Positions 16,614-37,958 of a stretch of 56,532 nt of DNA are shown here, piece after piece. The stretch comes from Candidatus Nanohaloarchaea archaeon. Lineage in GTDB: Archaea; Nanohalarchaeota; Nanosalinia; Nanosalinales; Nanosalinaceae. A program made the position numbers and the translations under genes. Under the pieces are notes generated by a model. The model saw nothing but the letters and a program-made list of their open reading frames with translations. It had not been told where the DNA came from and did no database searches. The stretch spans positions 1 to 56,532 of the forward strand of contig JBDGRE010000006.1 of the NCBI GenBank assembly GCA_042218325.1. The letters run 5' to 3'. Every line of letters begins with the position of its first letter. Position 1 is the first letter of the stretch.

Positions 16614-16826
16614 ATGCAGACAGAAGATATACTTGCTACCCTGGATGACTGCGTGGACGCGATCTCCACAGAGTTCTACGAGAGCGACGGCTACCTCCAC
16701 GTCAGCGTGAGAACGGATTACGACGCGTTAGAGGATGTCAACAAGGCCAGTCTTGAACTCGAGTCCTATGTCATGTCGGTTCTGAACGGTGGCGAAAGGT
16801 ACAGGCTCGCGTTCAGGCGGGACTAG
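16614..16826 (+). CDS. Small orphan protein
   Basis: 70-aa acidic ORF with TTTATA upstream. Confidence 0.55.
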   Translation: MQTEDILATLDDCVDAISTEFYESDGYLHVSVRTDYDALEDVNKASLELESYVMSVLNGGERYRLAFRRD

Positions 16827-17173
16827 CTCTCAAGGGCTTCCTGAACGGTTTTCAGTCCGAGAACCGCGCACTTGACCCGCATCGGCGACACATCGATTCC
16901 GAGTTTCTCCACCATCCATTCGCGGTCGAGCTCTTTCACCTGATCGACGTCCATTCCTTCCAGCTCTTCGCTGAGCACGGACATCGCGGCGGTCGATATG
17001 GCGCAGCCGTCTGTCTCGTGTCTCACCTGATTCACTTTCCCTTTCTCGACCTCCACGTATACGTGAGTGTGGTCGCCGCAGCTCGGGTTCTCGCCCTCCG
17101 CGTCAAAAGCATCTTCCAGCCTCCCGGAGTTCCGCGGGTTCCTGTAGTGGTCGAGTATCTCCTCCCTGTACAT
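16823..17173 (-). CDS. sufU: SufU/IscU-like protein
   Basis: YREEILDHY.NP.N, NPSCGD, GCAIS, RVKCA. Confidence 0.93.
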   Translation of the reverse strand: MYREEILDHYRNPRNSGRLEDAFDAEGENPSCGDHTHVYVEVEKGKVNQVRHETDGCAISTAAMSVLSEELEGMDVDQVKELDREWMVEKLGIDVSPMRVKCAVLGLKTVQEALES

Positions 17174-17255
17174 CAGTCGAAAACACCCTGGTGTTCGGAG
17201 ATTCCCTCTGGAATCTTCTGCAAGAAAATCCGTCCCACGGATTTTCGTTTTCTCG
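17171..17255. repeat. Multi-hairpin repeat core, copy 1
   Basis: 77/85 nt identical to 31520-31604; three internal hairpins. Confidence 0.95.
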
Positions 17256-17286
17256 GCTGATAGAGAAAATCTGCGATTTTCGTCAT
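17173..17286 (-). CDS. Repeat-encoded bridging mini-ORF (37 aa)
   Basis: MTKIADFLYQPRKRKSVGRIFLQKIPEGISEHQGVFD; TGATG overlaps with sufS stop and sufU start. Confidence 0.65.
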   Translation of the reverse strand: MTKIADFLYQPRKRKSVGRIFLQKIPEGISEHQGVFD

Positions 17287-18479
17287 CAGTCGAACACCTC
17301 CCTGACCTTTTCCAGCGCGAGCAGGAACTTTTCCACGTCCTCTTCCGTGTTGTAGAGGTACGGCGAGGCCCGGGCAGTGGAGGAGACGCCGAGCGACTCC
17401 ATCAGCGGCTGGGCGCAGTGATGGCCCGCTCTTATAGCGACGCCCTCCCTGTTGAGTATCTCGGAGATATCGTGCGGGTGCGCAGTCTCCATAGTGAAGG
17501 ACATCAGCGACGCGTCGCGGGGTGAGTAGACGGTTACACCTTCCATCTCTTCGAGGCCCTCTATCATCCGCGCGGTGAGCTGCTCGTCGTGCTCCCGGAT
17601 GTTCTCCATACCATGATTTTCGAGGTAGTCGATGGCCGCGGCGAGGCCGACGGCGCTGGAGACGTTCGGTGTCCCGGCCTCGAACTTCGCCGGCAGTTCC
17701 TCCCACTCCACCGAGTCGTGCTTCACGGAACGTATCATGCCGCCGCCGACCTGGTACGGCTCCATCTCCTCAAGCAGTTCTCTCCGGCCGTACAGCACGC
17801 CGATCCCGTCGGGTCCGAGCATCTTGTGGCCGGAGAAAGCCAGGAAGTCCGCGCCGAGCCCCTTCACGTCGACCGGCATCCTGGGAACAGACTGGGCGCC
17901 GTCGACCATGACGTACGCGTCGTACTCGTGCGCTACCTTCGTGATACCTTTAAGCGGGTTGCGGGCGCCGAACACGTTGGAAATCTGCGGGACCGTTACC
18001 AGCCCGACATCTTCGTCCATCATACCGCGGAACGCTTCCATGTCGATGCGGCCGTTCTCGTGCGGGATGAACTCGATGTCGAGGTCGTCCCGTTCGGCCT
18101 TCCGGCGCCACGGCAGCTGCTCGGAGTGGTGTGAGAACTCGGGTACAAGGATGCGCCCTTCAAGCTCCAGGGAGGAGGCCACAAGGTTTATCGACTCGGT
18201 GGTGTTGCGGGTGAAAACCGTTTCCCCGGGAGTTGCGCCGATGAAGTCCGCGACCGTCTTCCTCGATTCACGGTACCGCTCAGTCGACCTGCGGGCGAGT
18301 TCGTGTAGCGACCTACCGGGATTTGCGTTGTCCTGCTCGTAGTAATCCTTCACCGCCTCGATGACCTGCTCCGGTTTCTGGGTGGTCGCCGCATTGTCGA
18401 GGTAGACCAGTTCCCCGGAATTGACCTTCTGCTGCAGAGCTGGAAAATCCTTCCTGAGCTCCCCTGCGTCGAGAGACAT
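17286..18479 (-). CDS. sufS: Cysteine desulfurase SufS
   Basis: YLDNAATTQKP, DGAQ, SGHKMLGP, RAGHHCAQP. Confidence 0.96.
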   Translation of the reverse strand: MSLDAGELRKDFPALQQKVNSGELVYLDNAATTQKPEQVIEAVKDYYEQDNANPGRSLHELARRSTERYRESRKTVADFIGATPGETVFTRNTTESINLVASSLELEGRILVPEFSHHSEQLPWRRKAERDDLDIEFIPHENGRIDMEAFRGMMDEDVGLVTVPQISNVFGARNPLKGITKVAHEYDAYVMVDGAQSVPRMPVDVKGLGADFLAFSGHKMLGPDGIGVLYGRRELLEEMEPYQVGGGMIRSVKHDSVEWEELPAKFEAGTPNVSSAVGLAAAIDYLENHGMENIREHDEQLTARMIEGLEEMEGVTVYSPRDASLMSFTMETAHPHDISEILNREGVAIRAGHHCAQPLMESLGVSSTARASPYLYNTEEDVEKFLLALEKVREVFD

Positions 18480-31369: not shown

Positions 31370-31522
31370 TTACTCCTGCTTGTCGGTGTAGCGGTGGCCG
31401 CGGTCGTTCTCGTAGTTCTTCTCGCACTTGCCCGAGCAGAAATGCAGCTTCTCGCCGGACTGGCGTACCAGCATCTTGCCCTCGGTCTTCCCTATCGCGT
31501 CGCCGCAGTAGTCGCACTCCAT
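31370..31522 (-). CDS. rpl24e: 50S ribosomal protein L24e
   Basis: Own translation MECDYCGDAI..GKMLVR..G..LHFCSGKCEKN. Confidence 0.92.
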   Translation of the reverse strand: MECDYCGDAIGKTEGKMLVRQSGEKLHFCSGKCEKNYENDRGHRYTDKQE

Positions 31523-31604
31523 CAGTCGAAAACACCTCCGTGTTCGAAGATTCCAGAGGGAATCTTCTGCAAGAAAATCCGTCCCACGGATTTTCGTTTT
31601 CTCG
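31520..31604. repeat. Multi-hairpin repeat core, copy 2
   Basis: 77/85 nt identical to 17171-17255. Confidence 0.95.
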
Positions 31605-31632
31605 AGTTCCTGAATTCCATGAATTCAGTCAT
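31522..31632 (-). CDS. Repeat-encoded bridging mini-ORF (36 aa)
   Basis: MTEFMEFRNSRKRKSVGRIFLQKIPSGIFEHGGVFD; ATGA overlap with rps28e stop, TGATG overlap with rpl24e start. Confidence 0.65.
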   Translation of the reverse strand: MTEFMEFRNSRKRKSVGRIFLQKIPSGIFEHGGVFD

Positions 31633-31805
31633 CCTTCCATCTCCGTCTCCTTGATGTGGACGACGTCGTCCTCACGGACCGGGCCCCTGACGTTGCGGAC
31701 GAGGATCTTTCCTTCCTCGCTGCCTTCCACGATGCGGCACCGGACTTTCCGGACGCCTCGCGGGCCCTGGTCTCCTATCACTTCGACGATTTTGGCGAGG
31801 ACCAT
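31629..31805 (-). CDS. rps28e: 30S ribosomal protein S28e
   Basis: Own translation MVLAKIVEVIG..VRCRIVEG..RNVRGPVREDD; rpl7ae-rps28e-rpl24e synteny. Confidence 0.93.
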   Translation of the reverse strand: MVLAKIVEVIGDQGPRGVRKVRCRIVEGSEEGKILVRNVRGPVREDDVVHIKETEMEG

Positions 31806-31812
31806 GAACTAT

Positions 31813-32190
31813 CTATTCCTCTTCTTCTTTCTCGAGTAGCTCGAGTGCTTTTTGTGCGATGTCTTCGATGTCGCTCTCCGCGTTGCCGCTCGCGGTTACG
31901 GCTACCGCGGCGGACTGGACGTTGATGCCTGCGGCGAGGCCGAGCTCCTCCTTGTCAGGAACGAAAGTGTAGGGGATGTCCCTTTCTTCACAGAGCGCGG
32001 GGAGATGCATCACGATCTCCTCTGGTGAGACGTCGCTCGCGATGACCACGAGCTCTGCCTCGTTTCTCTCTATAGCCTTTGTTACCTCATTGGTCCCTAT
32101 CTCGACGCTTCCGGAGCTGTCTGCCTCCTCTACTGCGTCGTAGGTTTTCTCTGCGAGCGATTCGCCTGGTTCAAATTTCTGGTATGCCAT
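31813..32190 (-). CDS. rpl7ae: Ribosomal protein L7Ae
   Basis: GTNEVTKAIER, DVSPEEIVMHLPALC, LGLAAG. Confidence 0.96.
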   Translation of the reverse strand: MAYQKFEPGESLAEKTYDAVEEADSSGSVEIGTNEVTKAIERNEAELVVIASDVSPEEIVMHLPALCEERDIPYTFVPDKEELGLAAGINVQSAAVAVTASGNAESDIEDIAQKALELLEKEEEE

Positions 32191-37723: not shown

Positions 37724-37891
37724 CTAGTTATCCTTGACGGTGATAGGCAGCTTGCCTTCCTCAAGCTCTCGCTTCGCGATATCTCTCGGGTCCTCGTCAC
37801 CGGCCTCTACGAAAACCGGCGCTCCCATCGCTATCTGGAGGCTCCTGGCGCCTATCATCCTTGCTCTCTCGTAACGCGTGTAGTTGGTCAT
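37724..37891 (-). CDS. rpoK: RNA polymerase subunit K (Rpo6)
   Basis: Own translation [27 protein letters not shown]. Confidence 0.95.
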
Positions 37892-37958
37892 TCTAAAATC
37901 ACCTCCTGATTTTCTGTATGCCCAGAAACTCTTTGAGTTTCGCTCATGTATCTTTACC

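Follow-up and report, generated by a model that had tools for sequence, protein, structure and literature searches.

A repeated hairpin cassette with a relay reading frame at operon junctions of nanohaloarchaea: a candidate mobile element that lands on start codons

Why should two neighbouring ribosomal protein genes of a small archaeal genome enclose an additional open reading frame (ORF) of 36 codons that overlaps both of them? This question is raised by the rps28e-rpl24e (S28e-L24e) junction of a Candidatus Nanohaloarchaea archaeon (GenBank assembly GCA_042218325.1). The window analysed comprises positions 1 to 56,532 of contig JBDGRE010000006.1, which is contig C32 of the source genome G000 (1.07 Mb, 35 contigs, 96% complete), and a genome of the same genus, G001, served as the main comparison. 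Our analysis indicates that the 36-codon ORF is probably the pass-through frame of a hairpin cassette and not a protein gene. The cassette itself may be a spreading, self-contained relay unit that lands on start codons and makes the old start that of a leader mini-ORF, a reading to which we assign a probability of about one half. It would then be a mobile natural counterpart of the synthetic bicistronic design (BCD) and an archaeal convergence with the mycobacterial MIRUs. The anatomy of the cassette, its family, the covariation of its hairpins, its pattern of presence and absence and the statistics of its reading frames were observed directly. The junction is organised as follows.

31813-32190, minus strand: rpl7ae, first gene of the operon (ORF; Pfam PF01248, E 1e-27)
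31629-31805, minus strand: rps28e (Pfam PF01200); stop TGA at 31629-31631, which forms ATGA with the relay ORF start
31522-31632, minus strand: relay ORF of the window copy (copy 2), 36 codons plus stop, reading through the composite cassette (ORF list)
31610-31628, minus strand: first hairpin, 8-bp stem, loop ATG; common to G001, whose loop is 1 nt shorter (fold and comparison)
31542-31595, minus strand: nested 54-nt (18-codon) module with two 9-bp hairpins, 31573-31595 and 31546-31567 (fold; sequence comparison)
31528-31541, minus strand: rest of the last hairpin, with GGAGGTG at 31533-31539 in the loop and 3' arm (sequence; fold)
31520-31524, minus strand: TGATG, the relay ORF stop overlapping the rpl24e start (sequence)
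31370-31522, minus strand: rpl24e, 50 aa, zinc ribbon (Pfam PF01246)

The ORF had been noticed in an earlier sequence-only reading, and its 36 codons, the ATGA overlap with the rps28e stop and the TGATG leading into rpl24e are all present. Read 5' to 3', copy 2 consists of the 8-bp hairpin with loop ATG, which folds as had been claimed, two 9-bp hairpins and a short last hairpin bearing GGAGGTG. The nested module sits in the 5' arm of this last hairpin and is absent from G001 at this junction (query positions 46-96 missing). GGAGGTG lies 10 nt 5' of the rpl24e ATG and is complementary to the 16S rRNA 3' end of G000 (contig C34), which reads GGATCACCTCC; it is therefore a Shine-Dalgarno (SD) motif. 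The predicted RNA folding energy of copy 2 was -41.1 kcal/mol compared with -31.1 +/- 3.3 kcal/mol for shuffled sequences, 1 of 200 of which was equally stable. As the earlier reading had also stated, copy 2 is not flanked by a direct repeat; the longest one was 6 nt, a length equalled or exceeded in 58% of shuffles.

Comparison of orthologous junctions showed which feature of such inserts is kept. Over three junctions, 15 of 15 readable inserts contained an unbroken relay ORF, a count made without any model, so that broken frames, which would have spoken against the sequence-only reading, were not common. At S28e-L24e, the 30 loci examined comprised 7 spacers of at least 50 nt (G000, G001, G004, G005, G011, G014, G015) and 23 compact junctions of up to about 30 nt. 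All six readable long spacers carried an ATG-started relay ORF chain, while that of G014 reads as N. Both genes of the sufS-NifU junction were found at 29 loci, with inserts of 56-157 nt at six of them (G000, G006, G007, G023, G050, G052), 20 compact junctions and three further loci with more than 400 nt between the genes. Relay ORFs were present in 5/5 readable inserts (G006 reads as N), and in G023 the relay runs in two steps. At L2-S19, 28 readable loci comprised four cassettes (G000, G001, G006, G022) and 23 compact junctions; all four cassettes contained relay ORFs, in three different frames. The two spacers reading as N, of 104 nt (L044, G014, S28e-L24e) and 119 nt (L063, G006, sufS-NifU), have flanks that look like those of filled sites. 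G011 has a different insert at L2-S19 (L232), 319 nt long with an ORF of ~100 aa.

Two of the sufS-NifU inserts, in G050 (L079) and G052 (L078) from another family of the same order, are unrelated hairpins, GC-rich and 79-97 nt long. Perfect duplications of the SD-stop-start junction, 15-18 nt in length, enclose them and by themselves create relay ORFs of 25 and 27 codons. Where the target is an overlapping stop-start, as in G050, G052 and the sufS-NifU copy of the window (copy 1), duplication of the junction gives the insert both its start and its stop.

The two congeneric genomes share only 4-5 of about 25 cassette sites. Nine sites occupied in G001 are clean compact junctions in G000 (rpoB', L11, aIF2-gamma, L30, L5, L14 and three others), and at four sites with a cassette in G000 none is present in G001 (sufS-NifU, L4, S4e, rpoK). 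The rps4 site of G001 holds a remnant of 9 codons, which is 33 nt shorter than its G000 counterpart and remains bridged. Alignment of filled with empty sites showed that the native ATG and its upstream context are retained as the start of the mini-ORF (S4e, L4, L11, aIF2-gamma and the gene at G001:486610), while the SD and the new start come from the cassette. Start codons differ between the genomes at these sites: for S4e and L4 the start is ATG in G001 but GTG in G000, whereas L11 shows the reverse.

From these comparisons the following picture emerges. The basic unit, of ~57-63 nt, lies at the start codon of a gene within an operon. The former ATG, with its own SD, opens a mini-ORF of 15-20 codons that spans two perfect hairpins. 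In the second of these, a new SD occupies the loop and the 3' arm and pairs with an anti-SD-like arm. The stop of the mini-ORF overlaps or abuts the new start as GTGA, ATGA, TGATG or TAATG. Ribosomes arriving from the upstream gene, or loaded at the old SD, may then translate the mini-ORF, melt the hairpins, terminate at the next start and reinitiate. Genes coupled in translation by a stop-start overlap are widespread. According to PMC10666635, termination-reinitiation coupling is nearly gone at a spacing of ~20 nt in Haloferax and Escherichia coli; an insert of 60-110 nt would therefore uncouple the genes unless it were translated from stop to start. Translational coupling would thus outlast an insertion that would otherwise abolish it. 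The pairing of the SD in a hairpin fits the RNA-unfolding form of coupling described in PMC12548453.

The window contains two further copies, both matched by a covariance model, R1, that was trained on five ATG-bearing operon copies.

17173-17286, minus strand: copy 1, a composite cassette with a 37-codon relay ORF and TGATG at both ends (BLAST; covariance model R1)
37885-37947, minus strand: third window copy, a plain cassette with a 19-codon relay ORF and ATGA overlap (R1 match)

Copy 1 lies between sufS (17286-18479) and a NifU-like gene (16823-17173; NifU_N by Pfam), and its site is empty in G001. R1 covers it end to end, with the 54-nt module of two middle hairpins as one insertion, and an 11-nt direct repeat stands on its flanks. 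In a BLAST search of the source genome (1.07 Mb), copy 2 matched positions 17171-17255 over 85 nt at 90.6% identity (E 3e-24), the only other strong match. The peptide motif that had been reported as shared between the two copies is indeed carried by the 37-codon ORF, with 23/27 motif residues in common. The third copy precedes a 55-aa rpoK-like gene, and this site, too, is empty in G001.

The history of copy 2 could be followed by comparison with relatives. The sequence-only reading held that copy 2 splits a conserved junction, but a two-hairpin cassette with a relay ORF is already present at S28e-L24e in G001 and four other genera. In G001 it comprises the first and the SD-bearing last hairpin, and its 17-codon ORF runs in another frame to a TAA one base before the ATG. 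Three changes separate G000 from G001 here, namely one additional base in the loop of the first hairpin, the nested 54-nt module, and ACTG instead of TAAA before the ATG. The reading had also assigned TTCGACTGATG to the element. This was not supported: at least 6 relatives that lack an insert have CTGATG/TGATG natively at their sufS junction, the S28e-L24e cassettes in G001 and G015 do not contain it, and only the TTCGA part of TTCGACTGATG matches the 3' consensus of the cassette family. Since CTGATG is native at sufS and absent from these two S28e-L24e cassettes, the 3' 85 nt of copy 2, CTGATG included, were most likely copied from the sufS copy or a common source. An old S28e-L24e cassette, common to the congener, would have gained the nested two-hairpin module of 54 nt as well as the 3' end that it has in common with the sufS copy. 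If the additional loop base is taken out, the relay frame continues into rpl24e and meets no stop (frame 1), and the 1-nt loop change is therefore compensatory; it would restore the frame onto the new stop.

The relation between context and reading frame was then quantified. Copies in G000 and G001 were classed by eye before counting as sense-oriented between co-directional genes (26) or elsewhere (20), the latter lying beside tRNA genes, in leaders, after genes or inside a tRNA gene. A script scored an ATG-started ORF whose end fell between 22 nt before and 12 nt after the end of the unit. Relay ORFs were found in 23/26 operon copies compared with 3/20 other copies and 1/46 reverse complements. 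The three operon copies missed by the script, two composites with an ORF start upstream of the model match and one wrong coordinate range, are all bridged by eye. An ATG occupies model position 1 in 21/26 operon copies compared with 4/20 others. All operon copies are sense-oriented, their SD and start codon fit the gene that follows exactly, and the relay stops lie on the next start or up to ~17 nt from it. Orthologous copies differ in length by 54 nt at S28e-L24e and by 33 nt at rps4, both in frame.

It could be argued that the open frame is a matter of chance, that is, a stop-poor readable hairpin repeat without selection on the frame. About two thirds of the frames are stop-free in copies of any context, and for the two window copies alone a rough estimate is that chance would suffice in a few per cent of cases. 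We nevertheless regard this explanation as very unlikely in view of the 15/15 bridged inserts at three junctions, the enrichment of ATG at model position 1, the position of the stops, the in-frame length differences and the compensating 1-nt change at S28e-L24e. Selection on translational coupling is the best reading of the kept frames, given 15/15 inserts and 23/26 versus 3/20 copies. The sequence-only reading had arrived at the same suggestion from independent frame retention at the two window loci; the suggestion stands, whereas the independence does not, as the 3' 85 nt including the stop-start overlap are most likely shared by descent with copy 1.

Between them, the copies make use of all three frames with respect to the first hairpin (ENxRFS, KIxDFL, RKSKIF). 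Because inserts keep an unbroken relay ORF while copies use all three frames, it is the frame and not the peptide that is conserved, which agrees with the earlier view of the peptide as a by-product and answers its question of frame versus amino-acid conservation. That the ORF encodes a functional small basic protein is hardly credible. It does have a start, a stop and an SD-like context upstream, and copy 1 matches 23/27 motif residues. However, Pfam assigned no family to the 36-aa or the 37-aa peptide, and among 1.84 billion representative proteins there was one borderline, repeat-derived match. Other copies are read in other frames as unrelated peptides, the homologous bases fall in a different frame in the sister species, and amino-acid changes follow base pairing (N/F, T/V, I/I and S/D across the first hairpin). 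The sole library protein resembling the 36-aa peptide (P0001, E 7.5e-4) is a 224-aa ORF of a repeated ~25-aa unit and is probably itself a translated DNA repeat.

The family was found by a genome scan for GAA...TTC-type hairpins, in which units turned up before rps19, rpl4, rps4e and rps4. These units of ~60 nt open with an ATG, followed by a 7-bp hairpin, a linker of 10 nt, a second hairpin of 9 bp and GA; at the end, the stop overlaps a GTG start. Each reads as an ORF of 19-20 codons. They begin with ATGAGC or ATGACG, and the unit ends are not mutual inverted repeats. R1 gave 29 matches in G000 (E<=0.1) and 28 in G001 (E<=0.01), so that the inserted hairpin element proposed from two copies is supported and is not confined to these two. 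Genes downstream of copies encode S4, S4e, S19, L4, L5, L11, L14, L30, L24e, rpoB', rpoK and aIF2-gamma. Among relatives 41/61 genomes were positive at E<=0.01. Across Nanohaloarchaeota 45/70 were positive at E<=1e-5, with 35/49 in the own family and 4/10, 5/8, 0/1 and 0/1 in four other families, and 0/4 genomes of other orders were positive. The cassette is absent from whole near-complete genera (g17, 0/3; g16, 0/2). Carrier genomes are streamlined, ~1 Mb in size, and hold 10-30 copies each. In full-text searches on nanohaloarchaeal palindromes, repeats or hairpins, no description of the cassette was found.

Relatives of the nested 54-nt module were detected in seven other genomes at 78-86% identity (8 copies matched at BLAST level, 7 read). 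Four of the seven copies read are adjacent to tRNA genes, one lies between opposite-strand genes and two between co-directional genes. The last two are both bridged, by ORFs of 34 codons (GTG start) and 38 codons (ATG start). The four tRNA-adjacent copies lie between duplicated tRNA 3' ends. Scans of viral contigs with two exact patterns yielded 0 and 1 match; the single match lies inside an unrelated 380-aa gene without a second hairpin, and a viral origin of the cassette was rejected. When metagenomes were scanned with 21 nt of the nested module, a single chance match appeared, on an unrelated GC-rich contig. Cassette-like hairpin units without a relay ORF, one or two in number, also occur in the leader of rpl3, the first gene of the large ribosomal protein cluster (G000 C1:99803-99875; G001:C1:585834-585987, L211).

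Covariation was assessed in 57 aligned copies; the alignment was fitted to the model and thus favours structure, yet the margin was large. Standard pairs were formed in 97.6% of cells, and changes on both sides occurred in 14/16 pairs (154 cells). None of 500 shuffled controls reached these values, and with the partner slid by 1-3 columns no more than 17 such cells remained. In the second hairpin the SD, together with the start codon in some copies, is paired with a 5' arm that resembles the 16S anti-SD.

These features raise the possibility that the cassette is mainly a regulatory device of the host and persists for this function. As an SD-sequestering coupler, a natural 'bicistronic design', it would make downstream translation dependent on, or insulated by, the leader mini-ORF. 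The sequestered SD and start codon, the hairpins kept through compensatory change across genera, the concentration of copies before translation and transcription genes and the retention of 10-30 copies in streamlined ~1-Mb genomes are consistent with such a role. Against it, occupancy is patchy (7/30 at S28e-L24e, 4/28 at L2-S19, 4-5 of about 25 sites common to the congeners), near-complete genera lack the cassette, and the same hairpin modules also stand next to tRNA genes, which have no coupling to preserve. We therefore consider a mainly regulatory role possible but doubtful.

The tRNA-adjacent modules bear on a further explanation. In G000 (C31:77333-77386, C1:107170-107202, C7:6310-6520) and at loci L002, L006, L008 and L009, like hairpin modules lie directly 3' of tRNA genes and are followed by a second tRNA 3' part; the direct repeats of 23-40 nt start from the T-loop, and the arrangement resembles attachment-site duplications around an insert of ~90 nt. 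A hairpin unit also occupies the D-arm region of a tRNA gene in both congeners (G000 C16:5969-6021; G001:C1:41474-41526, L212), with the 9-nt repeat AGTGGCTAA on its flanks; it could be an intron or an insertion. Seven matches to tyrosine recombinases of the phage-integrase family were found in G000, including C5:16396-16974, C26:3346-3882 and C13:14394-14912. Several of these contigs are lower in G+C (C26 42%, C5 52%), suggesting integrated elements.

The palindromes might accordingly serve a recombinase, a binding protein or a replication-linked process at the DNA level, with the relay ORF as the price of an operon location and RNA structure irrelevant. The attachment-site-like duplications and the recombinase matches would suit this explanation, as would the almost purely Watson-Crick pairing. 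Furthermore, in the hairpin at 31546-31567 the 4-nt loop is reverse-complemented relative to copy 1 at 17197-17218 (CTCT versus AGAG) while the arms are equal save one base, which looks like a DNA-level flip of the palindrome. On the other hand, the operon copies are all in sense orientation with SD and start exact for the downstream gene, and no partner protein was identified. A purely DNA-level role is thus unlikely in our judgement.

To return to the pass-through frame and its relay, several observations weigh against this explanation. Direct repeats of at least 9 nt flank only 9/45 copies, and their lengths range from 9 to 24 nt. No transposase to move the cassettes was found in G000, and it is presence and absence alone that suggest mobility. 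The Y1 transposase (PF01797) and TnpB (PF07282) had 0 matches in this genome, with PF01797 controls matching in 6/14 genomes. R1 matches lean towards the ATG-bearing operon form, given the copies used for training. Since about two thirds of the frames are stop-free in operon copies and elsewhere alike, as expected of stop-poor hairpin sequence, an open frame is in itself weak evidence. Fisher's test on the relay ORF counts gave p = 6e-7, a value that overstates the significance, since the genomes are related. The context classes were assigned by eye. G-U pairs were rare (~9/883 cells) and one-sided changes almost lacking; such scarcity is at least as compatible with a palindrome acting in DNA as with a functional RNA hairpin, and arm-to-arm copying would suit it as well as the latter. 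Finally, translation of the mini-ORF, reinitiation, selection, any benefit to the host and the way in which copies spread are inferred.

Among known systems the closest analogue is the mycobacterial MIRU. As described in PMC12548453, which cites Supply et al. 1997, MIRUs are short interspersed repeats between operon genes that are regarded as mobile and believed to target start codons, and their internal ORF is coupled to the next gene at a -4 nt spacing with little effect on expression. Filled and empty cassette sites show the same logic of insertion at start codons. Like MIRUs, the cassette is a short unit repeated genome-wide (29 in G000, 28 in G001) and lies between co-directional genes, in their orientation, in 26/46 copies as judged by eye in the two genomes, the other 20 being beside tRNAs, in leaders or after genes. 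The ends of its internal ORF overlap or abut the flanking stop and start (15/15 inserts; 23/26 by script). In contrast to MIRUs, the cassette is archaeal, is built of two perfect hairpins of which the second harbours an SD, and supplies a new start, often GTG. MIRUs are said to lack dyad symmetry and to occur as tandem copies. The cassettes form nested composites, and tandem arrays are absent at both window loci (copies 1 and 2); they were set apart from MIRUs without sequence comparison. As a tandem (VNTR-like) array was found at neither window locus, the cassette was not filed as a member of the MIRU family proper.

Rickettsia palindromic elements (RPE) are palindromic repeats that survive in translated sequence by virtue of an open frame, the peptide being a by-product; they are inserted within protein genes, to which they add residues. 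The cassette resembles them in being a palindromic repeat with an open frame and a by-product peptide, but the window copies lie between genes, with a start and stop of their own, and not in frame inside a host gene. REP, BIME and REPIN sequences are likewise short extragenic palindromes in many copies, often inside operons. We know of no REPs organised as relay ORFs. The GTAG or CGTC head of REPs, described in PMC3733652, is absent from the cassette, and together with the 0 matches to the Y1 (RAYT) family PF01797 in G000 this led us to reject a REP/REPIN-RAYT identity. A PATE or MITE derived from IS200/IS605 was rejected on the 0 matches to PF01797 and PF07282 and because own-genome BLAST returned no longer element with the same ends. 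A classical MITE is at variance with flank repeats of at least 9 nt in 9/45 copies, of variable length (9-24 nt), and with ends that are not inverted repeats.

The SD-sequestering couplers of E. coli rpmI-rplT and the phage MS2 coat-lysis pair and the synthetic BCD share, according to PMC12548453, PMC5995908 and bioRxiv 10.1101/2023.02.09.527918, a leader cistron within which the SD for the following gene lies and which terminates at that gene's start. In these systems the translating ribosome unfolds the structure at the downstream ribosome-binding site. These are single loci or engineered parts, whereas the cassette is repeated, apparently spreading, and present at dozens of genes.

Several RNA identities were rejected as well. 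The UGAUGA/CUGA-like ends could suggest a C/D-box or K-turn RNA bound by L7Ae, but these motifs are stop-start overlaps and Rfam gave no match. For an H/ACA-like sRNA the hairpins are short and perfect, without a pocket or an ACA tail, again with no Rfam match. Rfam 15 covariance models found nothing in or near copy 2 at E<=10, and on seven further copies (E<=1) they returned nothing except a chance C/D-box match outside the unit. An apparent covariation of the linker triplet with the start codon (CAC with GTG, CAT with ATG) was inconsistent by eye.

If the reading of a spreading relay cassette is correct, termination-reinitiation coupling would shape which insertions tiny genomes tolerate. 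A repeat family that lands in essential operons and keeps its relay ORF would amount to a natural experiment on the coupling-distance rule in Archaea. It would also offer a ready-made part composed of a leader ORF, a hairpin-embedded SD and a stop-start overlap. PMC10266531 reports four very highly expressed, unassigned 'hairpin-hinge-hairpin-tail' RNAs in a cultivated nanohaloarchaeon, and these might be such cassette units. For genome annotation, the cassette would account for dozens of unannotated ORFs of 15-37 codons and for many GTG starts in nanohaloarchaeal genomes, and it advises caution against small-protein calls. With regard to genome evolution, it would represent a selfish or domesticated repeat that thrives in the 1-Mb genomes of DPANN archaea.

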